From Patescibacteria group bacterium (GTDB taxonomy: Bacteria > Patescibacteriota > UBA1384 > CAJBMM01), in NCBI GenBank assembly GCA_041660565.1, contig JBAZWC010000001.1:174481-238480 (forward strand): a stretch of 64,000 bases of DNA, given 5' to 3'. A model generated the notes under the pieces. It worked only from the letters and a program-made list of their open reading frames with translations, was not told where the DNA came from and did not search any database. Shown one piece after another: positions 31,966-63,710 of the stretch; positions within the stretch are counted from its first letter, which is position 1; the number at the start of each line of letters is the position of its first letter. Made by a program: the position numbers and the translations under genes.

Positions 31966-31977
31966 TCCAAATCTAGC

Positions 31978-33949: not shown

Positions 33950-34022
33950 CGCCGCCCCTATCCCCCGTTCCGAGGACAACTTGGATCGGGGGAAACTATT
34001 TTTCAATGAATGAATATAAATA

Positions 34023-36566: not shown

Positions 36567-36723
36567 CTGTCATTTCGACTCCTCGACATTCCAGTCGAGG
36601 GTGGAGAAATCTCTAAATAAAACCGGAAGGAATTCTTTCTCAGATTTCTCTCTCCGAGCCGTAGGTCTACGAGCCGGAGGCCAACATATTCGAATTGACA
36701 TTCTCATTGGGTCGAAATGACAG
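36567..36723. mobile_element. 157-bp MITE-like element, copy A, with terminal inverted repeats ctgtcatttcgac / gtcgaaatgacag
   Basis: 13-bp TIRs. About 75-80% identical to the copy at 39467-39589. Confidence 0.55.
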
Positions 36724-36734
36724 CTAGAACGAAT

Positions 36735-37907: not shown

Positions 37908-38126
37908 ATTTTTCTCCTCTTATATATGTATTATATCGCATATTAGCGTTTAAAAAAGCGGGCGATTGTCATCGTCCACTAACAGAAGTATATCAAAAGT
38001 ATCGACTCTTGTCAAACACTATCAGTTAAAGATGATGATATCTATGGCAAATATTTGTAAATAGTGGTATAATCATAATGTTCAGCTTAGCTGAAAGTAC
38101 ACTTCACAGAAGGGGGAGCGAAAATC

Positions 38127-38663
38127 GTGGCGATTGATGTTGAGCTCAATCCGTTGCTTTCCGACCCGTGTTATCGCGGGCGCGCAATGCGAATGGCGCG
38201 TCGGATTACGGGTAATCCAGACGACGCTGAGGATGTTGCTCAATGCGTGATGCTCAGGGCGTGGCGGGCAAATCCGCAGAATCTAAGGAGTCCAGAAGCG
38301 TGGATGACGTGTATCACTCGTCGTGTGGCACTCGATCGTATTCGCGCCAACAACAATCGGCGCAAGTATCTAGGCATTGCGGTCAGCTTGGATGAGGTGT
38401 GGGAAGGTAACGACACCCTCGTACGCCAGTTAGCGGACTTCACTCAAGATCCGGCGCAGATAATCGAAGACCGCGTAATCGACGATCGCCTACACAATGC
38501 CTTATTGGTGGTGCCGCAGATGTTTCGCGCGCCATTCACTATGCACGTTGTCGGCGGAATGTCATACGACGACATCGCCCAAAAGCTGGGTATCCCGATT
38601 GGAACGGTCAAGTCTCGTATCAATCGGGCGCGGACGATCTTGCGCGGACAGCTCAGCGCTTAG
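38127..38663 (+). CDS. ECF-type sigma-70 family sigma factor, GC-rich cassette
   Basis: Region 2 DAEDVAQCVMLRAWR and region 4 MSYDDIAQKLGIPIGTVKSRINRAR. GTG start preceded by gaaggggga SD. Extended -10 tggtataat upstream. Confidence 0.7.
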   Translation: MAIDVELNPLLSDPCYRGRAMRMARRITGNPDDAEDVAQCVMLRAWRANPQNLRSPEAWMTCITRRVALDRIRANNNRRKYLGIAVSLDEVWEGNDTLVRQLADFTQDPAQIIEDRVIDDRLHNALLVVPQMFRAPFTMHVVGGMSYDDIAQKLGIPIGTVKSRINRARTILRGQLSA

Positions 38664-38724
38664 TAGCCCTTTGCCGGAACATCGGCAAGGGGCTTCATTT
38701 TTGCAAATTTTCAACCTCGCAGAA

Positions 38725-39450
38725 CTATTTTTGATTTGTCAGGCGCATCCACAGAATCAAAATAAACATTTTTGGCAAAGCCAGTTGACGCTTAAAACGC
38801 TTTGGTTCGTGAACTAACCGCCACAACCACTCAAAACCGGCATTGCGCCAAGCTAGCGGCGGACGCTTTTTTACCCCGGCTAAATAATCAAACGTACCAC
38901 CAACACCCATCATTACCGGTACATTAAGCTCATTTTTATGTTGATGAATCCAGATGTCTTGTTTTGGGGCGCCCCAGGCAATCAGTAAAATGGACGGTTG
39001 ATGACGGAGGATGGTGGGGATAACCTCGGGATCGTCTGGTGAGCCTTCGTAAACCCCGGCAATTTTTAAGGTTGGATGTTCGGTGGTCCATAGATCGGCT
39101 ACTTTTTGTGCAACGCCGTTTCGGCCGCCCAGTAAAAAGATGGAAAATCCTTGCTCCGCTGCCATTTTAGCGATGAACTGGGTTAAATCGACACCAGTAA
39201 TGCGAGATGGAATCGGCTGATGTAGTAGTTTTGCCGCTAACACAATTCCCGCACCATCGGCTACGCTAATATCGGCCGAATTTAGAGTTGCCTTAAATAA
39301 TGGGTTGTGGCGCGCCTCCATCACAAATTCGGTGTTAACGGTGCAGATTTGATGTGGGGTTTTTGAGTCCACAAATCGGTGCACCTGCGCCAATATCTGG
39401 TCAAGCGTTAATAGGTCTATTTTAATGTCCAAAATGGAACATTTTATCAT
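38725..39450 (-). CDS. WecB/TagA/CpsF-family glycosyltransferase
   Basis: GVDLTQFIAKMAAEQGFSIFLLGG pattern of the WecG/TagA family. Confidence 0.6.
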   Translation of the reverse strand: MIKCSILDIKIDLLTLDQILAQVHRFVDSKTPHQICTVNTEFVMEARHNPLFKATLNSADISVADGAGIVLAAKLLHQPIPSRITGVDLTQFIAKMAAEQGFSIFLLGGRNGVAQKVADLWTTEHPTLKIAGVYEGSPDDPEVIPTILRHQPSILLIAWGAPKQDIWIHQHKNELNVPVMMGVGGTFDYLAGVKKRPPLAWRNAGFEWLWRLVHEPKRFKRQLALPKMFILILWMRLTNQK

Positions 39451-39466: not shown

Positions 39467-39589
39467 TGTCATCTCGACTCCTCGAGCATTGTCGAGAGGG
39501 TGGAGAGATCTCAAAAAAACTGGATGGAATTCTTTCTCAGATTTCTCCGACGCGGTCGATCTGCGGATCTCCCCGGGTCGAAATGACAG
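39467..39589. mobile_element. MITE-like element, copy B (about 125 bp), with TIRs tgtcatctcgac / gtcgaaatgacag
   Basis: Shares TIRs and internal ctcgac..gtcgag..ggtggaga..ggaattctttctcagatttctc with copy A. Confidence 0.55.
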
Positions 39590-39594
39590 TTATA

Positions 39595-40749: not shown

Positions 40750-41128
40750 GTCATTCCCGCGAAGGCGGGAATCCAGTCTATAAAAAAATGTATAATTATG
40801 GTATGGATAAATATTATTACGTATATATTCTCGCAAGTGATCGGAATGGCACTCTGTATATTGGAGTTACATCAGATTTAGTTGGCAGGATTTATCAACA
40901 TAAAAAAGACTGCGACGAAAAAGGATTCACCGCACAATATCAGGTTCACCGTTTGGTATATTATGAAATGACTAAGGACGTAAACAGCGCCATCACTAGA
41001 GAGAAACAGATTAAAAAATGGAACAGATCATGGAAAAAACGTTTAATTGAAACTAAAAATCCGGAGTGGAAAGACCTATACGAGGAAATTCATTCATAGA
41101 CTGGATTCCCGCCTTCGCGGGAATGACA
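40750..41128. mobile_element. GIY-YIG nuclease gene flanked by perfect 32-bp TIRs (element copy 2)
   Basis: Left tgtcattcccgcgaaggcgggaatccagtcta. Right arm is its exact reverse complement. Hairpin stem cccgc/gcggg replaces ccgga/tccgg of copy 1 (compensatory). Confidence 0.7.
40788..41099 (+). CDS. GIY-YIG nuclease family protein (paralog of the 28657-28953 product)
   Basis: YYVYILASDRNGTLYIGVTSDLVGRIYQHK. C-terminus KNPEWKDLYEEI is shared with copy 1. Stop codon lies inside the right TIR. Confidence 0.8.
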   Translation: MYNYGMDKYYYVYILASDRNGTLYIGVTSDLVGRIYQHKKDCDEKGFTAQYQVHRLVYYEMTKDVNSAITREKQIKKWNRSWKKRLIETKNPEWKDLYEEIHS

Positions 41129-45342: not shown

Positions 45343-45427
45343 TGGTGGGCGAGGAGGGAGTTGAACCCACACACCTTACGGTACACGATTTTGAGTCGTG
45401 CGCGTCTGCCAGTTCCGCCACTCGCCC
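45343..45427 (-). tRNA. tRNA-Leu(CAA)
   Basis: Cloverleaf derived by hand: 7-bp acceptor GGGCGAG/CTCGCCC, anticodon stem CACGA/UCGUG with loop CUCAAAA, long variable arm, T-loop GGTTCAACTCC, encoded CCA. Confidence 0.85.
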
Positions 45428-45486
45428 ATTGTTATTATTATACTAGAAAATTTGTAAAAAGTATAGATTGAATCAAAAATATAAGA

Positions 45487-45512
45487 GGTAGGCGACAAGA
45501 TGTCGCCTACCC
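45487..45512 (-). terminator. Hairpin terminator for the 45530-45793 gene
   Basis: ggtaggcgac-aagat-gtcgcctacc 10-bp stem, followed on the minus strand by tcttatattttt. Confidence 0.45.
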
Positions 45513-45529
45513 TTGTGGCATGACAGTGA

Positions 45530-45793
45530 TCAGCTCCGAATTCGGCATCGATACCTCTTGGTTCGATCGATCTCCGTTGACTTCACCAGGCCATGCATCT
45601 CCGCGCACGATTTGGCCTGAAGGAATACCGGAAGATCCTCGAACTCAACGACACGAAGATTCATGACCGGCATGCTGCCCCTGCAGTACATATCCTCTAC
45701 TTCAGGGCCGTAATCGACGATTTCCTGTGGAACTATCACTAGCTCAACGATAGCGCCCTCGGGAATCCAATTCCCGCAATCTGCGTATGGCAT
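45530..45793 (-). CDS. GC-rich hypothetical protein (87 aa), divergent partner of the 45943-46608 gene
   Basis: ATG preceded by a caaaggagaacgacc SD. GC-rich codons. Confidence 0.5.
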   Translation of the reverse strand: MPYADCGNWIPEGAIVELVIVPQEIVDYGPEVEDMYCRGSMPVMNLRVVEFEDLPVFLQAKSCAEMHGLVKSTEIDRTKRYRCRIRS

Positions 45794-45873
45794 GGTCGTT
45801 CTCCTTTGCGAACAAACGACAGAGTAGTGTTAGCGCAATAATATTCTACCACATTGCGCCGAATATGTACATA

Positions 45874-45902
45874 TTGACACATGGCAACGATATCAGTATA
45901 AT
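45874..45902 (+). promoter_or_regulatory. Exact sigma70 consensus promoter TTGACA-17-TATAAT
   Basis: ttgacacatggcaacgatatcagtataat, followed by a ggaggggg SD and ATG at 45943. Confidence 0.55.
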
Positions 45903-45942
45903 TGTGGGGATGGTTTCCAATCTCATTTCGACGGAGGGGGCG

Positions 45943-46608
45943 ATGGGAGTAACATGCGATCGGGTTGACGAGGAAGGTGCAATCGCAATCCTCGGCGAGG
46001 ATAACGTTGTACTTCCTCGAATGTGTGGGGTTTCTGCAGACGCTGTGGTGGATATCCCGTTTACGGCTGACGCACTGCGCCGGTGCCAACAGGATAACCT
46101 GGGAGGATTATCTGACTGGCGGTTGGTGTGTGTGAGAGGCTACTCACTGCTTGAGATGGTCAAGGTATTCCGGGTTAGCACGACGGGGCGCGACTGCTTC
46201 GAAGGCTCCGAGGGGTACGACTGGTGGTTTCGGAAGTCGTGGGCAACGCGGTTGGGAGAGCCGGGCTACCATCTGATCGATTTCACCCTGCGATTCGGTG
46301 GGATGTGCCTGGACTCTCGGTGCAAGCGTATTTCGGAAATGAGCGGTGTTCATGTACCTGACACCGCCGAGCTATCCGAAGCGATGCTGAGAGCGGCTCG
46401 CTGTTCAAACCCCAGGCAGCTACCTCACGACCGAGAGCATGGTGAGTTTCACGTCGGCAGCTTTACCGTGCCGTTTGGCCCGAGTAGCGCGTTCAGGCGG
46501 GTGTGGAGCGGACTCAACATTAACGCTCGGTACGTCGTTACGGAAGAGGTTGGCATGGGGGTGTTCACAAACGTCGGGGTATACCTGGCGAAGGACCGCA
46601 ACTGCTGA
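45943..46608 (+). CDS. GC-rich hypothetical protein (about 221 aa), paralog of the 23496-24146 product
   Basis: ATG at 45943 after a GGAGGGGG SD. The listed longer ORF starts inside the promoter. Shared blocks ADALRRCQQDN..DWRLV and DWWFRK..YHLIDF. Confidence 0.55.
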   Translation: MGVTCDRVDEEGAIAILGEDNVVLPRMCGVSADAVVDIPFTADALRRCQQDNLGGLSDWRLVCVRGYSLLEMVKVFRVSTTGRDCFEGSEGYDWWFRKSWATRLGEPGYHLIDFTLRFGGMCLDSRCKRISEMSGVHVPDTAELSEAMLRAARCSNPRQLPHDREHGEFHVGSFTVPFGPSSAFRRVWSGLNINARYVVTEEVGMGVFTNVGVYLAKDRNC

Positions 46609-46680
46609 GACTGCAAGCGATAGGGCGACGGCTAACAAGCTGCCGCCCTAACATATATTCCAGATTGTCATGGTCATACC

Positions 46681-46710
46681 TTGACAAAGTATGATCGATT
46701 ATGCTATAAT
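46681..46710 (+). promoter_or_regulatory. Promoter TTGACA-18-TATAAT for the sortase gene
   Basis: ttgacaaagtatgatcgattatgctataat. The ORF-track start at 46681 is the -35 TTG, not a start codon. Confidence 0.5.
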
Positions 46711-46734
46711 ATAGTTGTCAGTGAGGAACGTAAT

Positions 46735-47526
46735 TTGAACACACAGACAATTTCAACTAAAGATCTAATTTTAACCGAAGATGATGTTCGTCGGCTGATT
46801 TTTGGTGCCAAGACTGGTCATCAACGTAAACCGTTGAAAATTAATAAATATATCAAAAATGTGGCTCTGCTATTCATTTTGTTTGCCGCTGTCTTTATCG
46901 CCTTAAATTCCCCTGCTTATTATATGAAAGCCAAATTTATTTACCAAAACAACTTTGTTTCGCAAAAACAAACCCAAAATACCAGCATCAATGCACCGGT
47001 AATTACCTCTGGTACCGGTTCGGCCAGCACATCAACTACAAATGCTGCGGGCATTACTAACGTACTAGCCGACAACTATTTATACATTGATCGTATTAGC
47101 CTTGCTGCGCCGATTATTTGGGATGTTGCAGACGATAACGCCAGCCAGCTTAAAAATCTGCAAAATGGGGTGATAGATTTGGCCGGGCAAGCTAAACCGG
47201 GTCAAAACGGCAATATCTTTATTGTTGGTCATAGTTCGTACTCAATTTTTGCCAAAGGACATTACAAAACCGTATTTGCTTTGCTACCAGAGTTGGTTGT
47301 GGGCGATAAAATTACTATCACATATCAAAATCAAACATATAAATATGTTGTTACAGCTACAAAAGTGGTTAACCCCAACGATGTCAGTATTCGTGAGAAT
47401 ACCGCAGATCAAACTTTAACTCTAATGACATGTGTTCCGGTGGGCACAAACCTAAACCGTTTGGCAGTAATTGCCAAACCGGTAAACGCCAGTGTTTCAT
47501 CCAATTTGTTACCATTGGTTAAGTAA
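46735..47526 (+). CDS. Sortase-family transpeptidase
   Basis: TLTLMTC catalytic Cys motif, N-terminal TM helix. TTG start after a gtgaggaac SD. Confidence 0.65.
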   Translation: MNTQTISTKDLILTEDDVRRLIFGAKTGHQRKPLKINKYIKNVALLFILFAAVFIALNSPAYYMKAKFIYQNNFVSQKQTQNTSINAPVITSGTGSASTSTTNAAGITNVLADNYLYIDRISLAAPIIWDVADDNASQLKNLQNGVIDLAGQAKPGQNGNIFIVGHSSYSIFAKGHYKTVFALLPELVVGDKITITYQNQTYKYVVTATKVVNPNDVSIRENTADQTLTLMTCVPVGTNLNRLAVIAKPVNASVSSNLLPLVK

Positions 47527-47562
47527 CTTAGGCCTCCTAGGTTGCTTATGGGTATGGGCAAT

Positions 47563-47584
47563 AACACCAAATAGGTGTTTTTTG
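47563..47584 (+). terminator. Hairpin plus T5 terminator after the sortase gene
   Basis: aacacc-aaat-aggtgtt followed by ttttt. Confidence 0.4.
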
Positions 47585-47613
47585 TTGCTTATTTGCGTAA
47601 AATTTTGTATAAT
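47585..47613 (+). promoter_or_regulatory. Promoter TTGCTT-17-TATAAT for the 47656-48006 cassette
   Basis: ttgcttatttgcgtaaaattttgtataat, then a ggggaggtga SD. Confidence 0.5.
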
Positions 47614-47655
47614 AGCGAAAGCGTATCATCTTGCTCATGGGGAGGTGAGAACAAA

Positions 47656-48006
47656 GTGTCAGATGAAGTGCGAATGGGTGTGCATCCTGATCCAGAGGTG
47701 CAGGCGGCAATTGTTGCACTGGAAGAGGCACTGGATGCAACTCGCCATATCTCGCGAGGGCATATTCTTACTGTCAATTGGGGCGATCGTGGTGGATTCG
47801 TCCTTGCGGCCGGAGGTCTGTGTCTTACGAGATATCAGCGAGTAACGTCACAATCGCTCGGAAACAGGCTGCACATTGCCGTCACTAGCCTAAACAACGC
47901 CATACTGGCCGATAGGAGTGCCACCGGGCGCGGTGCTGAGGTTGTTATCAAGCTGTCGAGTGGACAGGAGTACCGTTCGAGCAACGGTGTGACTTGCACC
48001 GGCTAG
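47656..48006 (+). CDS. GC-rich hypothetical protein (116 aa)
   Basis: GTG 7 nt after the GGAGGTGA SD. Gly/Ala-rich. Confidence 0.5.
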   Translation: MSDEVRMGVHPDPEVQAAIVALEEALDATRHISRGHILTVNWGDRGGFVLAAGGLCLTRYQRVTSQSLGNRLHIAVTSLNNAILADRSATGRGAEVVIKLSSGQEYRSSNGVTCTG

Positions 48007-48029
48007 TTGTTGATGGCAGGTTGGACTCG

Positions 48030-48062
48030 TGGCCGTCGGAAAGTTCGACGGCCATTCATTTT
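48030..48062 (+). terminator. Rho-independent terminator
   Basis: tggccgtcg-gaaagtt-cgacggcca 9-bp stem followed by ttcatttt. Confidence 0.5.
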
Positions 48063-48077
48063 ACATATTTTTAGTTA

Positions 48078-48108
48078 GTTCAGGTAATAAACTATTTCCG
48101 GTCATATC
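48078..48108. repeat. Left copy of an about 30-bp direct repeat duplicating the last codons of gpmI (pseudo C-terminus MTGNSLLPELTKNM* on the minus strand)
   Basis: ttcaggtaataaactatttccggtcatatcc versus 49228-49258 ttcgggtaataaactatttccggtcatatcg. 26-bp exact core. Confidence 0.55.
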
Positions 48109-48153
48109 CGGTCATAATATTCGGGGTCTAATTTGGTTTAGCCGTGGCGCATC

Positions 48154-48182
48154 TTGACATATCTCAAAATATATGCTACAAT
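48154..48182 (+). promoter_or_regulatory. Sigma70 consensus promoter TTGACA-17-TACAAT for the 48506-48937 cassette
   Basis: ttgacatatctcaaaatatatgctacaat. Same 17-nt -10 block as the SLT promoter at 24287. Confidence 0.5.
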
Positions 48183-48505
48183 ACAGTATAACAATTAGGC
48201 TAGGCTCAAACTTAATCTAATCGTGACTGGACATTAACAACTATATATACCGCCTCAAGAGAGGATAAATCGTGCACAAGCATCGTGTAACGCTTTGTTC
48301 TCTCTCGAGGCGGTAACTCCCGCCCGAACGGCCGTGGCAGGTTGAATAAGTTTCATTCTGACGCCGAATGCTACGGGGAATGCCCTTTAAGGGCCACTAG
48401 GACGGGAGCATGTGGCGCTCCCAAATCCGATTTCATCCAGAATCTCTGGGAAAGCGGAATCACACGCCACAATCAGTTTTTCAGCCCCTGGGAGGGGGCA
48501 AAATA

Positions 48506-48937
48506 GTGGAAACGAAAACCCTGGCGAACGCAGTTGACGAGTTCGCCGAAATGGCGGCACGAGCAAGCGCGCCGCCTGTAGTGAAACCCGAGCCGATCTG
48601 GCTTGTGTGCCTCGAGTCCATGTTCGGCAGCGCCGCAATCGGCACCGCCGAGATCGTCGAGCGACTCCGGGCGGAGTTCTCTGTCCGGGAGCTGGACTTC
48701 AGAGGCACGTGCCGTGGGTGTACCCCCGACGTGTCGTTTAGCGAGGGATACTACTCCACTGTGCACGGTGAGATGGAGTACTACCGGTGGAGTACCCTTC
48801 GAATCGGCGACGAAGTCGATTACGACGGCCGCACATGGGTCGTCGTTCACAATGTGGGGAAGAGTGGCAACATGTGCTGCCCCGCCACTCACAAGCTAGT
48901 TCTTGTCCCTGTCGATGAACTCCATGGCAGGGCCTAG
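48506..48937 (+). CDS. GC-rich hypothetical Cys-containing protein (143 aa)
   Basis: GTG 8 nt after a gggaggggg SD. The listed ORF extends to ATG 48410 without a comparable SD. A roughly 320-nt structured leader precedes it. Confidence 0.5.
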   Translation: METKTLANAVDEFAEMAARASAPPVVKPEPIWLVCLESMFGSAAIGTAEIVERLRAEFSVRELDFRGTCRGCTPDVSFSEGYYSTVHGEMEYYRWSTLRIGDEVDYDGRTWVVVHNVGKSGNMCCPATHKLVLVPVDELHGRA

Positions 48938-49028
48938 GCACCCCGAGGGAGGACGGCAGTACGCCGTCCCCCTCCTATCCCAGAATTCACTAGTTCTCTA
49001 ATGAATTGTGGTGGTGGGAATAGATTAA

Positions 49029-49068
49029 AAACAAACAACCCTGTCTAATTTGACAGGGTTGTTTGTTT
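49029..49068. terminator. Strong bidirectional hairpin terminator (17-bp stem) between cassette I and gpmI
   Basis: aaacaaacaaccctgtc-taattt-gacagggttgtttgttt, with T-rich sequence on both sides. Confidence 0.55.
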
Positions 49069-49138
49069 ATCTGAGCCCAATATTCTTGTTAGATGAGATG
49101 AACGGGACGATAACTGTATCCTAACGGTTCATGCTAAC

Positions 49139-49205
49139 GGGAGGACATCCTCCTTCGCGCAAGGCTACGGGAGGACATGTGAGTCCTCCCCTACGTAGGT
49201 CGTAA
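49139..49205. repeat. GC-rich tandem-hairpin repeat, copy b
   Basis: gggaggacatcctcc ... cgggaggacatgtgagtcctcccctacgtaggtcgtaa. Confidence 0.5.
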
Positions 49206-49213
49206 AACCCAAT

Positions 49214-50836
49214 TTAACTTTTTGTGAGTTCGGGTAATAAACTATTTCCGGTCATATCGGCCGGTTTGGGTAGGCCTAGAAGCTCCAGAACCGTTGGAGC
49301 AACGTCTGCCAGCGTGTGCTCGGATTGCATAATATCAGCTAAAATATTTTGTTGATCCGGGGTTGTAGCGGGAGCAGATAAAGTGTGATCTCGGCTAATC
49401 ATAATAAACGGCACCGGATTAACTGTGTGCATAGTTTCAGTTTTTTGATCTCGATGGAGACCGATCATTTGTTCTGCATGACCATGATCAGCGGTAATTA
49501 ACACTACATTATTTTGATTTAAGGCCAGCTCAATTACCCGTTTTACCTGTTTATCAATCACTTGAACGGCAACCGAGGTGGCGGTGATGTCACCGGTATG
49601 GCCGACCATATCTACATTGGCGTAATTTGCCACAATAAATTGATACTTTTGCTCTTTCATATTTGCCAGTAACTTGTTGGTCATTGGCTCCGCCGACATT
49701 TCCGGCGCCTGATTATAAGTAACCACATCTGGCGATGGCACAATAATGCGGTCTTCACCCGGATACGGTTCTTCGCGGCCACCGTTAAAAAAGAAGGTAA
49801 CGTGAGCATATTTCTCACTTTCGGCAATGTGGAATTGCTTGAATCCGGCCTCAGAAATAAGTTTACCAAGGGTGTTTTGAATTTGGATTGGCTCAAAAAG
49901 TACCGGCATTGGAACTGGCAAACGATAGCTGGTAATTCCGGCGTAAAAGATATTTTTGGGTGGTTTAAAAAATAATCCCAATTTTTGTTCACCCAGAAAT
50001 ACCTTGGCCAATTGTCTAGACCTGTCGGCGCGGAAGTTAAAACAAACAACAGCATCGTTATCGTGGACCGTGTAAATCTGGTTATTATCAGTAATTACGC
50101 ATGATGGGAAAAATTCATCCTCAAACCCTTTGCGATACATAGTTGATATCGCTTGCTCAGCTGTTGGAAATCTTTCACCAATTCCATCTACCATCGCTTT
50201 ATACGCTACGGCTGTTCTGGACCAATGGTTGTCTCTGTCTAGCGAATAAAACCGACCGACAATCGAGGCAATTTTACCCAGATTATTAGTCTTTAATTTG
50301 TTCTCTAATTGGCTAATAAAATTAAATGCCGAGGTGGTGCCGCTGTCACGACCATCAAGAGTGATATGAAAATAAGTTTTAGTGATGTTATTCTTTTTGG
50401 CGAAATCGGCTAACGCAAGAGCGTGATCGATGTGTGAGTGCACGCCACCATCTGATAGCAAGCCGTAGATATGTAGCGCTGAATCATATTTTTTGATTTG
50501 CTCATTAATTTTTAACAACGTTGGATTGTTCATAAACGATCCGTCATTGATAGAATTTCCAATGCGAGTCATATCTTGAAACACCACTCTACCGGTGCCG
50601 ATACTAGAGTGCCCGATCTCGGAGTTCCCTACTTTTCCACTTGGTCCGACCACCTTTTTGAATGCTTGCAAAATTGTATGAGGATATGTGCGCCAATACA
50701 AATTCATAATGTCGGGGTTGTTCATAGTGATGGCGTTGCCGCCCCAACTAGGACTAATCCCCCATCCATCTAAAATTAGCAATACAACTGATTGGGCTGT
50801 TTTTGGATTGTTTGGCATATAATTATTATATATCAA
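49214..50836 (-). CDS. gpmI: 2,3-bisphosphoglycerate-independent phosphoglycerate mutase
   Basis: LLILDGWGISPSWGGNAI N-terminal metalloenzyme motif, 540 aa. Confidence 0.85.
   Translation of the reverse strand: MIYNNYMPNNPKTAQSVVLLILDGWGISPSWGGNAITMNNPDIMNLYWRTYPHTILQAFKKVVGPSGKVGNSEIGHSSIGTGRVVFQDMTRIGNSINDGSFMNNPTLLKINEQIKKYDSALHIYGLLSDGGVHSHIDHALALADFAKKNNITKTYFHITLDGRDSGTTSAFNFISQLENKLKTNNLGKIASIVGRFYSLDRDNHWSRTAVAYKAMVDGIGERFPTAEQAISTMYRKGFEDEFFPSCVITDNNQIYTVHDNDAVVCFNFRADRSRQLAKVFLGEQKLGLFFKPPKNIFYAGITSYRLPVPMPVLFEPIQIQNTLGKLISEAGFKQFHIAESEKYAHVTFFFNGGREEPYPGEDRIIVPSPDVVTYNQAPEMSAEPMTNKLLANMKEQKYQFIVANYANVDMVGHTGDITATSVAVQVIDKQVKRVIELALNQNNVVLITADHGHAEQMIGLHRDQKTETMHTVNPVPFIMISRDHTLSAPATTPDQQNILADIMQSEHTLADVAPTVLELLGLPKPADMTGNSLLPELTKS
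49228..49258. repeat. Right copy of the about 30-bp direct repeat (the authentic 3' end of gpmI)
   Basis: Encodes DMTGNSLLPELTKS* on the minus strand. Confidence 0.55.
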
Positions 50837-50859
50837 ACCAATGAAAATGACTAAACCGA

Positions 50860-52443
50860 CTAACTTTCGGAACTTTGCGAAATTAAACTATTAAGTACCA
50901 TTGTTTTTGGTTTAATGATTCCGATAATTTGTAACACAGTTGGGGCTACATTACCCAAACATCCACCTTCAACAAGCTGTATTTTGGCCAATTCGTGATC
51001 CTTTGTGGCAACAATAAGCGGTACCGGATTGTTGGTATGCTCGGTATCTGGCAGACCAGATTCTGGATTCACCATCTCCTCTGCGTTTCCATGATCAGCG
51101 GTTACTACCATCGTTCCATTCACTTTTTGTACCGCTTTCCAAATTTGGTCTATGCATTTGTCTATGGTTTCTACTGCAGTAATGGTGGCACGAATATCGC
51201 CCGTGTGGCCTACCATATCGGCATTGGCAAAGTTAATAACATAAAAATTGTATTTATTGGCGTTTAATTGCTCAAGAATTGCTTTAGTGATAGGTTTAGC
51301 AGACATTTCTGGCGACTTGTTGTAGGTTGCAACCTTAGGTGACGGGATTAATAATCGATTTTCCGAAGCGACCGGCGACTCCGCGCCACCGTTAAAGAAA
51401 TAAGTCACGTGAGCGTACTTTTCGGTTTCTGCAACGTGAAACTGATGTAATCCAGCCTCTGCAACACATTCAGCCAGTGATTTATCCACTGGTTCGGGAT
51501 TAAACGCAACAGATACCGGTAAGCCGGTTTGATATGAGGTAAAAGTGATGATATTTAGTTTGGGAATGCTCGATTCTTTTTTAAACGCGGCATCTTTCTG
51601 GCAAAACGCTTTAACTATTTGTCTCATTCGGTCTGAGCGAAAGTTATAGCAAATCACTAAATCTCCGTCAGACATTTTGGTCAGATTTTCTTTTTTATCT
51701 CGTACCACCATTGGTTCGATAAATTCGTCGATGATACCTTCTTTGTAGCTTTTCGAAATGGCGTCCACCGGATCATCAACCATCTTGCCTTGCCCAAACA
51801 CCATGGCTTGATACGCTTTCTCGGTACGTTCCCATCTATTGTCTCGGTCCATGGCGTAATATCGCCCACTTATGGTGGCTAAATGGGCATTACTGTGGTT
51901 ACTTTTAAGAAATTGCTCCAAATGTCTAACAAACTGAATTGCGCTAGTTGGCTCGGTGTCACGCCCGTCTGTTAGCGCATGAATTGCTACTTTTTCCGCT
52001 TTTAATATCTTACATAGCTCGATTAGGGCAAATAAATGATTGATGTGACCGTGTACTCCTCCATCAGATAAAATTCCCACCAGATGGATGGTTTTCTTTG
52101 CTTTAATGGCTTTTACGATGCCATCAACTAAAACTGGGTTAGAAAAAAAGTGACGATTTTTAATTTCATCATCAATTAGCGGTAAAAATTGTTTCACTAC
52201 CTTTCCGGCGCCGATATTTAAGTGGCCGACTTCGGAATTTCCCATTACCCCACGAGGCAAACCAACGGCCTGCTCGGACGCTTTGAGCTGAGTGTGAGGC
52301 ATAGTACGCCACAGATCGTTCATCACCGGAGTTTTGGCCATGGCAATCGCATTTCCACCCCAAGACGGCGCGATTCCCCATCCGTCTAAAATGATTAGTA
52401 ATAGCGGCAAATGTTGAAATTGCTCTTTAACCGGTTCTGCCAA
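50860..52443 (-). CDS. gpmI: 2,3-bisphosphoglycerate-independent phosphoglycerate mutase, tandem paralog
   Basis: LLIILDGWGIAPSWGGNAI. 527 aa. About half the residues identical to the adjacent copy, estimated by eye. Confidence 0.85.
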   Translation of the reverse strand: MAEPVKEQFQHLPLLLIILDGWGIAPSWGGNAIAMAKTPVMNDLWRTMPHTQLKASEQAVGLPRGVMGNSEVGHLNIGAGKVVKQFLPLIDDEIKNRHFFSNPVLVDGIVKAIKAKKTIHLVGILSDGGVHGHINHLFALIELCKILKAEKVAIHALTDGRDTEPTSAIQFVRHLEQFLKSNHSNAHLATISGRYYAMDRDNRWERTEKAYQAMVFGQGKMVDDPVDAISKSYKEGIIDEFIEPMVVRDKKENLTKMSDGDLVICYNFRSDRMRQIVKAFCQKDAAFKKESSIPKLNIITFTSYQTGLPVSVAFNPEPVDKSLAECVAEAGLHQFHVAETEKYAHVTYFFNGGAESPVASENRLLIPSPKVATYNKSPEMSAKPITKAILEQLNANKYNFYVINFANADMVGHTGDIRATITAVETIDKCIDQIWKAVQKVNGTMVVTADHGNAEEMVNPESGLPDTEHTNNPVPLIVATKDHELAKIQLVEGGCLGNVAPTVLQIIGIIKPKTMVLNSLISQSSES

Positions 52444-52461
52444 ATTCCCCTCCTAAAAACC

Positions 52462-53505
52462 TTATATCAATTTTTTCTTTAAATTCTCGATTCGGTCCAT
52501 TTCCACCGGATCTTCGCCGTTTAATAACGCCAAATAATAGCTTACATAATCACCAAAAATAATCTGCGCCAACATTAGCCCTAATTTTGAATTGATTTGA
52601 TCGAATGTCGGGTTTAACACCAAAGCACCGGCGGCGCTAAACTCATCGCCGACCAATTTAACGCGCTTGCGATTTTGGGGATGATCAAAATGGGAATCTA
52701 AAAAGATGACAGCCGAAGATTTGACAATATCCAATGGCAATTTATATCCCAAATACATGTTGTGGCACATCTCTGGCATTGGTTCAATAAATGCCACAAT
52801 TTTGGCATTTTCGTTAAGCTGGCCTTTCCAACGCGTGCCAACGGCAAACGAAAATCCGCTACCAACCACAAAAACCATTTTATCAACTAGCTTTTGGGCA
52901 AATTCTGCTGTTTCGGCTTTCATTTTTTCTACCGGCCAATGGGCTAGCACCTCGGTTACGGCGCCATCAATTAATGTCTTTGGATTATCTGAATCAGGCA
53001 AAAAATGCGCCTTGAGCATTACCCCATACGCGATACCAAGCGTGTATGGCAGACCTACTCGGGGAGCTACCGGATACGTAAATTGCAACAGTGAAATATG
53101 GTATTGTTTTGCCCATTCTGCCAGTTTGCCACCGGTGGTAATGCAAACCATTGGGCAACCAAGTGCGCGCGCTTCCTCTGCCGCCGACAGCGTTTCTTCG
53201 GTATTACCGGAGAAGCTGGTCACACACACCGCATCGGTTGCGTTAACGTATGGAGGTAAATGATAGTCAGATACTACCTCAACCGGCACCTTGCCATCGG
53301 TTTTGGCTAAAGTCGAAAGAATTGTATATCCCATTCCAGACCCGCCCATACCTAGGCCAATCACCCTTTTGGCGTTCATAAATTCTTTAGTTGGCTCAAA
53401 ACCATAACCAATTTGTGCCGCTTTTTTAAACTCCGGTAGAAATTCATCGATTCGCGCCAGCATATTGCTGGAATCGTGTTTTTGGGCAAGAGAGTCGTAG
53501 TCCAT
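52462..53505 (-). CDS. SIS-domain bifunctional phosphoglucose/phosphomannose isomerase-like protein
   Basis: GLGMGGSGMGYTIL and SFSGNTEETL SIS signatures. Confidence 0.6.
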   Translation of the reverse strand: MDYDSLAQKHDSSNMLARIDEFLPEFKKAAQIGYGFEPTKEFMNAKRVIGLGMGGSGMGYTILSTLAKTDGKVPVEVVSDYHLPPYVNATDAVCVTSFSGNTEETLSAAEEARALGCPMVCITTGGKLAEWAKQYHISLLQFTYPVAPRVGLPYTLGIAYGVMLKAHFLPDSDNPKTLIDGAVTEVLAHWPVEKMKAETAEFAQKLVDKMVFVVGSGFSFAVGTRWKGQLNENAKIVAFIEPMPEMCHNMYLGYKLPLDIVKSSAVIFLDSHFDHPQNRKRVKLVGDEFSAAGALVLNPTFDQINSKLGLMLAQIIFGDYVSYYLALLNGEDPVEMDRIENLKKKLI

Positions 53506-53555
53506 AATTCATCTCCTAATTATAGGATAAGCATAGCACAATAATTACCCCGATT

Positions 53556-53592
53556 CCAATTGGATTAATTGGAGTGATTTTGGTAAATTGGT
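53556..53592 (-). promoter_or_regulatory. CCAAT array upstream of the SIS-isomerase gene promoter
   Basis: Minus strand reads CCAATttaccaaaatcactCCAATtaatCCAATtgg. Confidence 0.35.
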
Positions 53593-53601
53593 TAGAAATT
53601 A

Positions 53602-53629
53602 TTGTAAAATTGCCGTTTTCTGGTATAAT
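53602..53629 (+). promoter_or_regulatory. Promoter TTGTAA-16-TATAAT with TGn extended -10
   Basis: ttgtaaaattgccgttttctggtataat, then a gggaggag SD. Confidence 0.45.
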
Positions 53630-53673
53630 TTGGACTAGTCATAGCACCACCACAACTTAACTCCCGGGAGGAG

Positions 53674-54510
53674 ATGATGGAAACGGTTAGGCCGCATCGC
53701 GAAATCTGCGTCACCGGTACAAAAACGATCGATCAGCTTTTCAAGGTCGCCGCTGAGTTTGTAAAGGCTCGGGCGGTTCGCGCATGTGCTACATCGAGCT
53801 TGATCGATCAAAGACTCGTAATTGGCGTGTTAGCCAGCTCAAAGACATTGCGGGGTCTGGCAAACCACTGGCCAATGCGGTATCCACGATGCGACACACT
53901 GAAGAGGTTGTTTGCCCTGGGCTGTCATGCTGCTGAAATGCGGTTGCATCTGAACATCTCTGACACGGATCGGCTGGTAGAGGAAGTCGAGTTGGCACAT
54001 TGGATGTGCGGCGAAAGGCTGTCCGGTATCCAGCTGAATATGTGCTGGCCGCCGGAGTACTTGCTCACGGAGCTGCACCGGAGGCGGCCGGAAACGGATC
54101 TGCTGTTGCAGATTGGCGCGAACGCGTTACTCGAGTTCGAGGCGACGCATGGTGGCGCCATCCCGTTCTATGACGTTAAATGCATTGTTGCCCGTGTTGG
54201 GCAGTACGGCTCCAGCATTAATCGGGTATTGCTTGACCCGAGTGGTGGTTGCGGCGTCCCGATGAATGTGGACCGCCTGCGACCGGTTGTCGAGGGGTTG
54301 AACCACGCATTCCCCAACCTAGGCATCGGAGTTGCCGGTGGGCTGTGCGCCGAGACACTGCTGTCCATCGCGCCGCTGATCGAAGCCTGTCCAACGCTGA
54401 GCATCGATGCCGAGGGGCGTCTGCGCAATCCGGACACCGACGAGCTGGATATGGGCCGTGTCGAAGGCTATCTGACCGCAGCTTTCGACCTGTTCTACCC
54501 TCAAGCGTGA
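53674..54510 (+). CDS. GC-rich TIM-barrel protein resembling phosphoribosylanthranilate isomerase (TrpF-like)
   Basis: N-terminal REICVTGT resembles KICGIT. LLDPSGGCG and IGVAGGLCAETLLSI align with TrpF GGtG and lAGGLnpeNV blocks. The match was made by eye. Confidence 0.45.
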   Translation: MMETVRPHREICVTGTKTIDQLFKVAAEFVKARAVRACATSSLIDQRLVIGVLASSKTLRGLANHWPMRYPRCDTLKRLFALGCHAAEMRLHLNISDTDRLVEEVELAHWMCGERLSGIQLNMCWPPEYLLTELHRRRPETDLLLQIGANALLEFEATHGGAIPFYDVKCIVARVGQYGSSINRVLLDPSGGCGVPMNVDRLRPVVEGLNHAFPNLGIGVAGGLCAETLLSIAPLIEACPTLSIDAEGRLRNPDTDELDMGRVEGYLTAAFDLFYPQA

Positions 54511-54520
54511 TCAACACACT

Positions 54521-54556
54521 GCCGCCTTGCCCGGTTCGGGTAAGGCGGCTTAAATT
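54521..54556 (+). terminator. Rho-independent terminator
   Basis: gccgcctt-gcccggttcgggt-aaggcggc followed by ttaaatttat. Confidence 0.55.
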
Positions 54557-54609
54557 TATCTATTGCATAAGAAAATCTTATCCTTTACCATAAAGTAAAG
54601 GAGAAAAAT

Positions 54610-54840
54610 ATGTTTTATCGACACCCACGGGAAAAGAACTTTTTGGATGTGGCCATGGCGTTTATCGTCGTTGGTGCGTTCATTTTAACCTACGGAATTA
54701 TCCAATGGGGAGTAAACGTTGGCAATTCCGAGGTTGTGTACAATTTGCCATCGGAGAAAATCATTGGTGGCTTGGTGGTAATGGGTTTGGGCTACATTCA
54801 ATTGCAATTAGAACTGATCCGATCTCGCAATAACAAGTAA
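54610..54840 (+). CDS. Small membrane protein (76 aa)
   Basis: aaaggagaaaaat SD. Two hydrophobic helices. Confidence 0.4.
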   Translation: MFYRHPREKNFLDVAMAFIVVGAFILTYGIIQWGVNVGNSEVVYNLPSEKIIGGLVVMGLGYIQLQLELIRSRNNK

Positions 54841-54878
54841 AGTGTGCTAAAATACACTCAAATTGTTAAATATATATT

Positions 54879-55619
54879 ATGAGACTAAATCGATACATCG
54901 CCTCATCTGGTTTATGTTCGCGACGCAAGGCAGACGAGCTTATTCAATCTGGCAAAGTTCGAGTTAACGGTGTAATATCCGAAGATTTTGTGGATGTTAA
55001 TGTTGGTAGCGATAAGATTGAGTATTTGACTGCGCCAAATGTTTGGGCTGAGCTAAAATTAGATCAAGAATTGGTGGTTTATGCCTTAAATAAACCGCTG
55101 GATTACGTTTGTAGCGCATTAGATGCTCACAACGCCAAATTAGTGATAGATTTGGTGCCAAAAACCGCACGCGTCTTTCCGGTTGGCCGGCTAGATAAAG
55201 ATAGCACCGGCCTGCTATTACTGACCAATGATGGAGATTTGACCAACAAACTGACTAGTCCGGCACAGCATATTCAGAAAACGTATTTGGTTAAATGTCA
55301 TATTCCGCCAAACTATAATCGGTCGCAACTCAAGCTAAACTTAAAGAAGCTATCTACCGGCATTGTTTTAGATGGATATCCTACCCTGCCGGCAAAAATT
55401 AAGCTAAGAGAAGAGCTGAATGATGACCACATCTTGTTTGAGATGACGTTATTTGAGGGGAAAAACCGACAAATTCGCCGAATGTGTCAAAAAATCGGAT
55501 TGAATGTGGTTGAGCTTTCGCGCGTATCGATTGGCGGGCTTCAGTTATCCGACCTTAAAATTGACGTGGGGCATTATATTAAGTTAAACAATAATCAAAT
55601 TAAACTATTATTGAAATGA
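54879..55619 (+). CDS. RsuA/RluB-family pseudouridine synthase with S4 domain
   Basis: MRLNRYIASSGLCSRRKADELI S4 motif, GRLDKDSTGLLLLTNDG catalytic Asp. Confidence 0.75.
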   Translation: MRLNRYIASSGLCSRRKADELIQSGKVRVNGVISEDFVDVNVGSDKIEYLTAPNVWAELKLDQELVVYALNKPLDYVCSALDAHNAKLVIDLVPKTARVFPVGRLDKDSTGLLLLTNDGDLTNKLTSPAQHIQKTYLVKCHIPPNYNRSQLKLNLKKLSTGIVLDGYPTLPAKIKLREELNDDHILFEMTLFEGKNRQIRRMCQKIGLNVVELSRVSIGGLQLSDLKIDVGHYIKLNNNQIKLLLK

Positions 55620-56575
55620 TGCACAAACTCTTGCTTGTAATATCCGTATTCATAACCGCCTTTATTAGCCCGGCGGTTTCATCGCATTTTGATCAACGTA
55701 TGATTATCAAAACGCCGGTTATTCATATTAATCCCCCTATAATCTCTACACCGGCAATTATTCCGACTCTGGGTAAACTAGATACCTTATCAATTTTAGC
55801 CCAGAGTTATTTGGTGTATGAGCCGTCAACTGCCACCGTGCTGGTTGAAAAAAACGGGTACACTAAAAGACCAACCGCCAGTACTATCAAAATTATGACC
55901 GCGGTTTTGACCATCGAAAACAAGAAAATGGAGGAAGTAATAACGGTTTCGCCTCTTGCCGCGTCTCAACCGGGGTCAACTGCCGGGCTTAAAGCGGGTG
56001 AAAAAATTACGGTTGAAAACGCGCTTTATGGGTTATTATTAAATTCGGGCAACGATTGCGCCTGGGCGTTGGCTGAATACGTTGGGGGTACCGAAGAGCG
56101 TTTTGTCGAGATGATGAATGTGCGGGGCAAAAGTCTTGGCCTAACCACGTTTCATGCTAACGACCCGGCCGGATTAGATGAGTCAGCCACAACCGGCACC
56201 TACGCTTCCCCGTTTGACATTGCCAAACTGCTTAGCTATGCCATGAAATATCCGGCTTTGTCAAAAATTATGACCACAAAGAACTATACTCTTTATAATA
56301 CCAGTGGGAAGAACGCTCGCATTTTATTAAACTCGAATCGATTTATTCAAAATGATGACAATCGCATTATTGGGGGCAAAACCGGTACCGGGTCAAATAT
56401 CAGTGTTGGGGGTGCCGGTCACGTGCTGGTAGTAGCGGCAAAACAAGACGGATACACCATCATTGCCATTGTGGACGGTACAACCATAGACAGTAATACT
56501 GCGTCATATGACCAGCTGAAGATACTGCTAGATTTTACATTTGCCAACATTGTTCCAACCACCAAAACTTGGTAA
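55616..56575 (+). CDS. D-alanyl-D-alanine carboxypeptidase (PBP5/DacA-like serine peptidase S11)
   Basis: STIK (SxxK), SGN and KTGT motifs in order. Confidence 0.75.
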   Translation: MMHKLLLVISVFITAFISPAVSSHFDQRMIIKTPVIHINPPIISTPAIIPTLGKLDTLSILAQSYLVYEPSTATVLVEKNGYTKRPTASTIKIMTAVLTIENKKMEEVITVSPLAASQPGSTAGLKAGEKITVENALYGLLLNSGNDCAWALAEYVGGTEERFVEMMNVRGKSLGLTTFHANDPAGLDESATTGTYASPFDIAKLLSYAMKYPALSKIMTTKNYTLYNTSGKNARILLNSNRFIQNDDNRIIGGKTGTGSNISVGGAGHVLVVAAKQDGYTIIAIVDGTTIDSNTASYDQLKILLDFTFANIVPTTKTW

Positions 56576-56579
56576 CGGA

Positions 56580-56700
56580 GTAAGCACGAAACTCGAAATA
56601 CGGAGCACGAAACAAGCACCAAAATCTCAAATCACAATTTTTAATTTTTAAATTTCGGATTTATAATTTGTTTCGAATTTCGAAATTAGTGCTTCGAGTT
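56580..56700. repeat. Long imperfect inverted repeat of AAGCACGAAA / TTTCGAAATTAGTGCTT units between convergent genes (GTGCTTCGA family copy 3)
   Basis: Left arm aagcacgaaactcgaaat..agcacgaaacaagcac pairs with right arm tttcgaatttcgaaattagtgcttcga. Right arm overlaps the rnc stop. Confidence 0.35.
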
Positions 56701-57396
56701 TTCGGAATTGAGGTACTCAATACCGGCAACAGCTGCTTGGATTTGAGCTAACTGTTTAGAGTTCCCCTGGCCGGTACCAATTTGTTTATCGTTTAGGTAT
56801 ACACCAACTGTAAATATTTTTTGATGGTCTGGCCCTTGTTCGTCTAGCACCTTATAGTTTGGCGTAATGCCGTGTTTTTCTTGGGTGATTTCTTGCAGCT
56901 GACTTTTAGGATCAATGTGCTGGCCGCTTTGTAAAATTGTATCTAAATGCACTAAGACGAATTTGGCAATAAACTGTTTGATCGGTTCGTACCCCCCATC
57001 TAAGAACATCGCCCCAATTAAAGCCTCAAAAGCGTTAGCTAAAATTAGTTGTTTGGCTTTTCCACCGCTTTTTGCCTCACCATGGCTTAAATACATCAAA
57101 TCGCCAAAACCGATATTTTCGGAAATTTCGGCTAAGTGCTGACCACGAACCAGCGCCGAACGCCAGTTGGTTAGTTCGCCTTCCGGTTTGTTATATTTTA
57201 AATATAAATATTCGGTAACCACTAATTCCAAAACGGCATCACCCAAAAATTCAAGCCGCTCGTTGTTCTCCAAACCCAACTGTCTATTTTCATTTAATGC
57301 TGAGCGGTGAATAAAAACACGCTGCAATAAATTGCGGTCACTAAAAGTGTAACCAATTTGAGTTTCTAGGGCATCAAAATTACGTTCTGGGAGCAT
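56686..57396 (-). CDS. rnc: Ribonuclease III
   Basis: ERLEFLGDAVLELVVTEYLY signature, C-terminal dsRBD. Confidence 0.85.
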   Translation of the reverse strand: MLPERNFDALETQIGYTFSDRNLLQRVFIHRSALNENRQLGLENNERLEFLGDAVLELVVTEYLYLKYNKPEGELTNWRSALVRGQHLAEISENIGFGDLMYLSHGEAKSGGKAKQLILANAFEALIGAMFLDGGYEPIKQFIAKFVLVHLDTILQSGQHIDPKSQLQEITQEKHGITPNYKVLDEQGPDHQKIFTVGVYLNDKQIGTGQGNSKQLAQIQAAVAGIEYLNSENSKH

Positions 57397-58787: not shown

Positions 58788-59564
58788 GTGCGACAATACA
58801 TCGAAGTGGTTGGGATTTCGTCCGTCGAAGAGGCGCACTGCGTTGTGGAGCATTATCACAACGCACGACCAATTGGTTCGGAGATTATTCTGAGGCTTGG
58901 AATAGTGGCAAAACCTAACTTGGTTGGTGTCCAGCGAGACGAGCAGATCACCCATGCCGTCTGCAACCAGTGCTTGTGTTGGTCCGATGTTGACGTGTGC
59001 ATGCACTGGTACGATCAAACCGGGGCGCCTACCGACCTGATGGCAGTCGTTACCGGTACGTACGCGGTTGCAGGGTTCAACCTCAGTCATTTGCAACTCG
59101 ACATACCTGAACTTCCTGACCCGGGTTTGCTAGGTACTGCGGTTCACGCGACGCGCAGCAATGGCTTACGGGTGGTGCTGTCACTTGGCTGTAATCAGCT
59201 GTTAGACAATGGGTACGACAGCGATGAGCCCGACTACGGCCCGTTGATAGAACGTCTGTCTGAATATGCGACCGATGGTTATGTTGACCAGCTAGTGATA
59301 AAGCCCGGGTGGCTCGGAAACAAAGTAAACCTACGTTTACTGATACAGGCTGTTCGGGAGCTATATCCACGGTGGGGTGTCACCATATTCGACGGGCTTG
59401 TATTACCGACCGCGATAGGTGAGGTCAGAGAGCTTGCCATGGAGTTCGGCGGTGTCTCTGTCTCCGCGCACCATCAGCTGTTTGCCTGTCCGGGAGGCCC
59501 GGAGCTGTCAGAAACGCGGGTATTGTGCTTTATCCAGGAGGGGTTGCGTGTTCTGGGCACCTAG
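58788..59564 (+). CDS. GC-rich TrpF-like TIM-barrel paralog (258 aa), related to the 53674-54510 product
   Basis: IEVVGISSVEEAH N-terminus. KPGWLGNKVN and FDGLVLPTAIGEV align with the PSGGCG and VAGGLCAE blocks of the other cassette protein. Confidence 0.45.
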   Translation: MRQYIEVVGISSVEEAHCVVEHYHNARPIGSEIILRLGIVAKPNLVGVQRDEQITHAVCNQCLCWSDVDVCMHWYDQTGAPTDLMAVVTGTYAVAGFNLSHLQLDIPELPDPGLLGTAVHATRSNGLRVVLSLGCNQLLDNGYDSDEPDYGPLIERLSEYATDGYVDQLVIKPGWLGNKVNLRLLIQAVRELYPRWGVTIFDGLVLPTAIGEVRELAMEFGGVSVSAHHQLFACPGGPELSETRVLCFIQEGLRVLGT

Positions 59565-59579
59565 TCGTTACGTCCAATT

Positions 59580-59608
59580 CGCCGCGAGGATTCTACTCGC
59601 GGCGTTTT
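59580..59608 (+). terminator. Rho-independent terminator
   Basis: cgccgcgag-gattcta-ctcgcggcg 9-bp stem followed by tttt. Confidence 0.6.
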
Positions 59609-59638
59609 AAGTATCTATATATGTGATAAAATTAAAGT

Positions 59639-63613: not shown

Positions 63614-63645
63614 AAGTTAACATTAGCATAAATATCATGAGCGGT

Positions 63646-63710
63646 GTAGGGGAGGACCCGTGTGTCCTCCCGCGGGCGGACATGTGAGTCCGCCCCTACG
63701 ATGCTCGTAA
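63646..63710. repeat. GC-rich tandem-hairpin repeat, copy c
   Basis: gtaggggaggacccgtgtgtcctcccgcgggcggacatgtgagtccgcccctacgatgctcgtaa. The outer gtagggg/cccctac arms enclose two hairpins. Confidence 0.5.

Follow-up and report, generated by a model that had tools for sequence, protein, structure and literature searches.

Cis-mobilizable elements (CIMEs) are decayed integrative elements that retain the attachment sites attL and attR and have lost their recombination and transfer genes (PMC5704250). The classical streptococcal CIMEs are 1.2-13 kb long and occupy the 3' termini of rpsI, rpmG and fda, a gene of glycolysis (PMC7563491). Here, we analyzed 64 kb of DNA from a Patescibacteria group bacterium (GenBank assembly GCA_041660565.1, contig JBAZWC010000001.1, positions 174,481 to 238,480; this whole stretch is called the window and is numbered from its first letter), in which a cassette of about 1.15 kb with a GC-rich gene lies next to the 3' end of gpmIb, a gene for 2,3-bisphosphoglycerate-independent phosphoglycerate mutase. 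The cassette is flanked by direct repeats of that gene end, and an earlier reading of the letters (the original prediction) had taken this arrangement for an attL/attR-like integration signature. Our results give good support to an insertion by which the 3' end of gpmI was both duplicated and restored, as opposed to a chance or regulatory repeat, while site-specific catalysis of the insertion is plausible but unproven.

The cassette is like the CIMEs of streptococci, which are found at fda, rpsI, rpmG and tRNA-Lys, in that it is small, carries cargo without integrase or transfer genes, and is bordered by attL/attR-like direct repeats of which one is the end of an intact housekeeping gene; fda, like gpmI, is glycolytic. 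Specifically, the repeat is 40 nt long with a 26-nt exact core, one copy is the 3' end of intact gpmIb, and no integrase, excisionase, relaxase or conjugation genes were found within the insert. However, the att sites of CIMEs match those of co-occurring integrative and conjugative elements (ICEs) or integrative and mobilizable elements (IMEs), with which they often stand in tandem, whereas no cognate ICE, IME, prophage or integrase is known here, the host is a Patescibacteria metagenome-assembled genome, and the origin by decay is presumed. The cassette appears to work like a CIME-type relic, and we stop short of calling it a proven CIME, because no functional family of elements with matching att sites was found in the collections searched.

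Integrative elements and prophages that insert at the 3' ends of tRNA or protein genes, and rebuild these ends from a copy of their own, likewise leave direct repeats that are tens of bp long and contain an exact core, a displaced gene end at the far side and an element-borne copy that keeps the protein sequence. Unlike the cassette, which is 1.15 kb long and has a single non-recombinase gene, they carry an integrase beside one att site and usually span 5-100 kb or more. Taken alone, such a pattern is typical of integrative elements and of the decayed forms derived from them; the host group and the target gene are new.

The gpmIb gene end is repeated on both sides of the cassette

The original prediction described flanking repeats of about 30 bp with a 26-bp exact core, and cautioned that they might prove shorter once aligned computationally. 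The repeats are real, and the alignment lengthened them: copies at 48069-48108 and 49219-49258, in the window, match over 40 nt with 37/40 identical positions and a spacing of 1150. The exact core, GGTAATAAACTATTTCCGGTCATATC, occupies 26 nt at 48083-48108 and 49233-49258. When up to 3 mismatches were allowed, the core occurred twice in 64 kb versus 0.00 times expected (100 shuffles). The local alignment score of the pair was 65 against a shuffle maximum of 26-30, and the pair ranked first among direct repeats of the window at spacings of 300-4000. Homology of the copies stops abruptly at 48108/49258, the other limit lying within ~3 nt of the stop codon, and alignment revealed no homology continuing past these limits, including weaker similarity into the cassette. 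Positions 45398-56818 of the window (11.4 kb), both repeat copies included, recur with 100% identity in a Logan assembly made independently from SRR18595301, indicating that the arrangement is reproducible and not an assembly artefact. At the left junction there is also an exact 10-nt tandem, TCCGGTCATA/TCCGGTCATA (48097-48116, plus strand), whose first unit forms the final 10 nt of the repeat and whose second unit lies mostly beyond the repeat copy.

A repeat of this kind might have arisen by chance or might be functional (regulatory or antisense) and unrelated to insertion, and another GC-rich island of the window is indeed flanked by a repeat (2932-2970 / 3920-3958) that plainly looks like a duplicated promoter plus operator. 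Zero matches are expected by chance at the gpmIb end, however, and one of the copies lies in coding sequence while the other retains frame and stop codon. The pseudo-copy is situated between a terminator and a promoter, which makes its transcription unlikely and counts against the regulatory reading. We consider this explanation very improbable.

Both copies read as ends of a once-functional gene

The gpmIb gene (49214-50818, minus strand, with the stop codon at 49214-49216) is intact and encodes 534 aa. Translation of the right, attR-like copy (49219-49258, minus strand) gives the true last 13 gpmIb codons and the genuine gene end, ...GLPKPADMTGNSLLPELTKS*. The left, attL-like copy (48069-48108) lies within a gpmIb pseudo 3' end at 48061-48108 on the minus strand, which encodes DMTGNSLLPELTKNM*; read from farther upstream it gives PRIL*PDMTGNSLLPELTKNM*, an in-frame TGA two codons upstream shutting off the pseudo-end and leaving it untranslatable. 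The proposal that the upstream copy is a pseudo C-terminus with synonymous differences was confirmed by these translations: 3/3 mismatches between the copies (coding-sense positions 26, 32 and 35; A>T, T>G and A>G on the plus strand) are synonymous third-codon changes. All three are confined to the five codons before the stop, i.e., the stop-proximal 14 nt. Under unconstrained substitution, the probability that all three mismatches would be synonymous is 0.007, that of an exact block of at least 26 nt surviving is 0.15, and the joint probability is about 0.0007. Synonymous-only, clustered mismatches make both copies look like once-functional gene ends that diverged under purifying selection, and this internal pattern is the strongest evidence for an insertion involving two functional versions of the gene end. 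Codon usage was uninformative as to which of the two copies is foreign.

The mismatch pattern also bears on an origin in which the copies were identical at birth and diverged later, either as a 40-nt target-site duplication from a staggered cut that was filled in upon insertion (transposase-, casposase- or retroelement-like) or as 40 nt of filler from break repair. Such an origin would suit a discrete insert flanked by direct repeats, one junction of which has a short tandem that looks templated, in a genome that contains a retron reverse transcriptase (RT). The pseudo-copy of a duplication born identical would be free to mutate anywhere, however, so this origin does not predict the pattern observed, which at 0.0007 is improbable for drift of an unconstrained pseudo-copy. 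Furthermore, 40 nt is far above the transposase duplications known to us, all of which are far shorter, no inverted repeats are present at the insert termini, no transposase was found, and we know of no retron RT that mobilises DNA. Copies identical at birth therefore seem improbable to us.

The pseudo-end has a close neighbour on its other side. The terminator hairpin of an upstream GC-rich open reading frame (ORF), ORF116 (47656-48006), which is convergent with gpmIb, lies 5 nt away from the pseudo-stop (48029-48055, plus strand; 12-bp stem, -19.9 kcal/mol, U-rich tail). This proximity suggests an original convergent, compact end of the gpmIb locus, and the ORF116 terminator together with the pseudo-end is probably the ancestral compact gene end of gpmIb.

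We also examined the corresponding loci of relatives, whose closest gpmIb proteins are 65-72% identical. In the genome studied here, gpmIb and gpmIa are tandem gpmI paralogues after pgi (49214-52443), and this pair is kept in all relatives examined, their loci retaining the order PGI-(response regulator)-gpmIa-gpmIb. A response-regulator gene is present between pgi and gpmIa in most of the relatives and is missing here, and the gene downstream of gpmIb is different in each. None of the relatives examined has a duplicate of its own gpmIb gene end.

As gpmI is already in tandem here and in the relatives, the repeat could be the remnant of a third tandem gpmIb copy, most of which was lost or gave way to the cassette, and a copy that was functional for long would account for the synonymous-only divergence. 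The remnant of a recent tandem copy, like other duplications born identical, would not predict that pattern. No third gpmI copy was found in the relatives examined, however, and no further gpmI-like DNA or protein sequence accompanies the pseudo-end. Two events would also be needed, with a deletion ending exactly at the cassette start, and we judge this history to be quite unlikely.

The insert contains a single gene with its own signals

A promoter, a leader, a GC-rich ORF, two terminators and a hairpin repeat had been described between the copies. These contents are present at 48154-49205, and the description of the hairpin repeat could be refined. The promoter (48154-48182, plus strand) is of the sigma-70 type with an extended -10 element (TTGACA-17-TACAAT with TG, 11/12), and has 17 exact nt, spacer included, in common with a promoter at 24287-24315. 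It is followed by a structured 5' leader of ~320 nt (48190-48505, plus strand; folding z -5.6 versus shuffles) that includes a near-perfect hairpin of 74 nt (48245-48318, plus strand; -40.5 kcal/mol, z -8.9) and has no match in Rfam. The leaders of the neighbouring cassettes, ORF116 and ORF221, are short, unlike that of ORF143, the gene that follows. ORF143 (48506-48937, plus strand) has a GTG start, a strong ribosome binding site (GGGAGGGGG) and a coding-type composition; it is the only credible gene of the insert, the other ORFs being overlapping GC-rich frames. The GC-rich part of the insert is limited to 48240-49000.

A GC-rich hairpin that lacks a U-tract (48945-48974, plus strand; -25 kcal/mol, z -4.2) immediately follows the stop codon of ORF143. 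A perfect AT-rich palindrome at 49029-49068 (z about -8) is terminator-like on both strands and is predicted to be a bidirectional intrinsic terminator for ORF143 (plus strand) and gpmIb (minus strand). The hairpin repeat was found at 49138-49205 as a half copy (49138-49157) and a full copy (49168-49205), both on the plus strand, of the form CGGGMGGAC-N6-GTCCKCCCCTAC. Members of the same family recur at 31977-32014 and as an inverted doublet at 63645/63673 (63645-63710) upstream of leuS, and a compensatory A:T to C:G change distinguishes copies of CGGGMGGAC-N6-GTCCKCCCCTAC(G). The recurrence and the compensatory change indicate that the hairpin belongs to a dispersed family resembling repetitive extragenic palindromic (REP) elements. 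Two of the REP-like copies stand at the gene-proximal edge of GC-rich islands.

The composition of ORF143 (locus tag WC773_01080) deviates from that of native genes, with GC contents at the three codon positions of 0.63/0.47/0.73 versus about 0.49/0.36/0.41. A word-indexed search of 5.8 billion proteins recovered only ORF143 itself, and exact-protein look-ups of gpmIb, ORF116 and ORF143 returned this organism alone. Exhaustive HMMER searching of 1.8 billion representatives identified 12 distant relatives with a conserved C-terminal domain of ~85 residues. One of these is encoded amid Bro-N, NucS-like, YqaJ and RecT genes, i.e., in a phage-like early region, and another in a small-ORF island of a bacterium at about 54% GC. 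ORF143 matched no family in Pfam, PHROGs or PADLOC and nothing in cultured phages. Its AlphaFold model (pLDDT 77) consists of three helices followed by a small C-terminal beta-barrel and has no significant match among solved structures; the best match in a viral library was an uncharacterised Caudovirales protein (E 3.8e-4). On the profile matches, ORF143 is a member of a small uncharacterised family, and its foreign composition and sparse, phage-associated relatives suggest a real, horizontally wandering gene.

As a self-contained promoter-gene-terminator unit of deviant GC content, whose protein has a relative encoded among phage-like early genes, the cassette also resembles phage morons. 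However, morons are defined inside phage genomes and lack host gene-end duplications, whereas the cassette is chromosomal and lies between housekeeping genes.

A recombinase acting in trans may have inserted the cassette

From the synonymous pattern, the boundary at the stop codon and the compact pseudo-end, we infer an incoming gene end, a crossover in the core and a displaced original end. In the model that we favour, a segment of ~1.15 kb would have entered the chromosome within the last 13 gpmIb codons by a single conservative crossover, in which the gene end of the chromosome recombined with a diverged but still coding end on the incoming DNA. The crossover would have fallen within the 26-nt identical block. 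The incoming end (PELTKS*) would now complete gpmIb, and the original end (PELTKNM*) would have been displaced 1150 bp downstream, still abutting the terminator of its old neighbour. The likeliest agent would be a site-specific recombinase whose gene lies elsewhere or has since disappeared. The segment would then be a relic comparable to a CIME and immobile on its own, its cargo a self-contained transcription unit of promoter, structured leader, ORF143 and terminators. We give about an even chance to the proposal that a recombinase acting in trans, by crossover in the gpmIb end, made this recombinase-less relic with its attL/attR-like flanks.

A number of observations weigh against this proposal. 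We scanned the cassette ORF and ~55 other window ORFs (~56 in total, all of at least 100 aa) with Pfam, and found no integrase, resolvase or transposase domains in the insert or in the scanned window ORFs; the scan yielded housekeeping genes, a retron RT, an extracytoplasmic function (ECF) sigma factor and a TraG/VirD4-like fragment. The statement of the original prediction that no integrase lies within the segment therefore stood. Its suggested check, that the same core might flank other cassettes, came out negative, as the core was found nowhere else in 64 kb, including beside the other cassettes, at up to 3 mismatches. The exact core and a degenerate version of the 13 codons were absent from viral, genome and metagenome collections, and no empty site or attP was detected in viral, genome and metagenome contigs of public data, in which no close relative was present either. 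No integrase or autonomous element was present beside gpmIb in the relatives examined, and we found no literature report of phosphoglycerate mutase as attB or of an autonomous element targeting gpmI. By eye, the 26-nt core has a weak internal dyad only (GGTAATA-AAC-TATTTCC). When eleven GC-rich islands were delimited in the window and the two borders of each were aligned against each other, a gene-end repeat like that of gpmI was found at 0/10 of the other islands. Finally, the promoter, the bidirectional terminator and the REP-like hairpins of the insert are of host type.

These native-looking edges suggest that the donor could simply have been a related strain with an accessory gene downstream of gpmIb. 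DNA from such a strain, carrying its own gpmIb end, might have entered by a RecA-type single crossover (a Campbell-type circle) or by homology-facilitated illegitimate recombination, the 26 nt serving as minimal homology. Several features fit this alternative. The insert flanks carry a 17-nt promoter match, REP-like hairpins and an AT-rich terminator of the genome's own families, and the synonymous-only differences would suit two alleles of one gene. The 26 nt of the core come close to the minimal length for efficient RecA-dependent recombination, and the 10-nt tandem at the left junction resembles a footprint of repair or slippage. No recombinase is nearby, and the region downstream of gpmIb is variable in relatives. 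A single crossover at a short stretch is known to duplicate that stretch around an insert and to leave a junction footprint, as seen here, but Campbell-type insertion usually involves longer homologies or engineered constructs, and natural cases of 26-40 nt are rarely documented. The donor would also have to be circular or specially structured, with homology ending exactly at 48108; simple allelic exchange would replace the gene end and would not duplicate it, and no donor strain is known. We regard short-homology recombination with related-strain DNA as possible and as a serious rival of the trans-acting recombinase.

The original prediction of an attL/attR-like insertion at gpmI can therefore be kept in part. 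Insertion with restoration of the gene end is supported by the synonymous-only mismatches and by the foreign ORF143, but no site-specific integrase was found. Since related-strain DNA would explain the host-type edges no less well than a dedicated mobile element would, and with no recombinase in evidence, the description of the locus as direct evidence of site-specific insertion was too strong.

The scar offers one dated, mechanistically readable case of a streamlined Patescibacteria genome gaining a foreign, self-expressed gene with its essential neighbour unharmed, and it makes the 3' terminus of gpmIb a candidate attachment site. If the genome encodes a cognate recombinase, the 26-nt core would provide it with a ready substrate, for what would be the first tool for site-specific integration in this uncultivated group.

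Other known types of element were considered and rejected. An autonomous integrative element or prophage was dismissed on account of the absence of a recombinase from the insert and from the scanned window ORFs. A DDE transposon or miniature inverted-repeat element was set aside, as terminal inverted repeats are absent and the duplication measures 40 nt, versus 2-14 bp for such elements, and has mismatches that are coding-constrained. Mobilisation by an RT, which a shared 3' hairpin might suggest, was rejected because the RT is a retron RT and the hairpin belongs to the dispersed REP-like family, which also occurs away from islands. A diversity-generating retroelement was excluded by mismatches that are not adenine-specific and by a window-wide scan that found no pair of template and variable repeats; moreover, the RT of the window is that of the retron.

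Integron cassettes and integrative mobile elements exploiting Xer (IMEX) are, like the cassette, small recombinase-less units that use a defined site and a recombinase supplied in trans. The cassette differs in having no attC-type site with R boxes, no IntI, a site that lies in coding sequence and is not dif-like, no terminus signature, and a promoter of its own. An integron cassette was rejected on the grounds that no window ORF is IntI-like, that the hairpins lack R-box ends (by eye) and that the gene has its own promoter; IMEX, on the grounds that the site is in gpmIb coding sequence, that the window shows no GC-skew turn and that no convincing 11-6-11 dyad was seen (by eye).

Other GC-rich islands and dispersed repeats of the window

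About ten further islands, at 52-56% GC versus 44% for the genome, are interleaved with core housekeeping genes. They include 2051-3875, 20651-21975, 23451-24175, 33476-34050, 38076-38750, 45501-46700, 47626-48075, 53676-54600 and 58801-59625. The islands mostly contain ORFans without a Pfam or PADLOC match, and several have near-consensus sigma-70 promoters. Nothing was in common among the island sequences beyond the promoter -10 stretch and the REP-like hairpin.

Significant border repeats were found only at the gpmI cassette and at island 2970-3960. The latter repeat (2925-2970 / 3913-3958; 39-46 nt, 85-90% identical) consists of a GAAGATGGACA-T-TGTCCATCTTC palindrome and an extended -10 element, and heads two consecutive GC-rich units on the minus strand, namely ORF281 (3024-3869) and a run of small hydrophobic ORFs (2132-2839). 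The two units thus seem to have an operator and promoter in common, which a putative repressor would bind, and the repeat would be regulatory in nature and no scar.

A broader proposal holds that trans-mobilised, promoter-equipped single-gene mini-cassettes with coding mimics of gene ends, placed by an unlinked recombinase at the ends of housekeeping genes, produced the GC-rich ORFan islands in general, only the gpmI scar being young enough to be seen. We rate this as a long shot because 10/11 islands lack a scar. If true, it would amount to an integron-like route of gene capture without an integron platform in Patescibacteria.

Some islands carry recognizable genes. One encodes an ECF sigma factor (38127-38663). 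Another (30700-31907) encodes the retron-type RT (30918-31907; PADLOC RT_XIII, E 4.8e-59; Pfam RVT_1), which is preceded by a structured leader of 218 nt with a long-range helix (30712-30723 with 30848-30861) that is msr-msd-like; no obvious effector gene was identified adjoining the RT. At the left window edge, beside a GC-rich island, lies a fragment of a TraG/VirD4-like coupling protein (6-1361; T4SS-DNA_transf, TraG-D_C), and a conjugative or integrative element may extend past that edge.

A second dispersed family of intergenic hairpins, ATAGATTCCGGGTCAAGCCCGGAATGACA, was observed at 6894-6928, 24358-24392 and 28989-29023, with a partial copy at 31942-31959. An exact match of 18 nt (28984-29001 / 31942-31959) brackets 2.96 kb containing lexA, two other genes and the retron. 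The intergenic regions 36594-36726 and 39491-39592, which precede a large gene (34023-36500) and a gene for a WecG-family glycosyltransferase, share repeats of 57 nt (81%) and 25 nt (84%); they have no match in Rfam and may represent a shared leader or regulatory RNA. Lastly, a direct repeat of 211 nt (28747-28957 / 40893-41103) was found with 73% identity between copies 12 kb apart, one of which overlaps a small ORF at 40788-41099.

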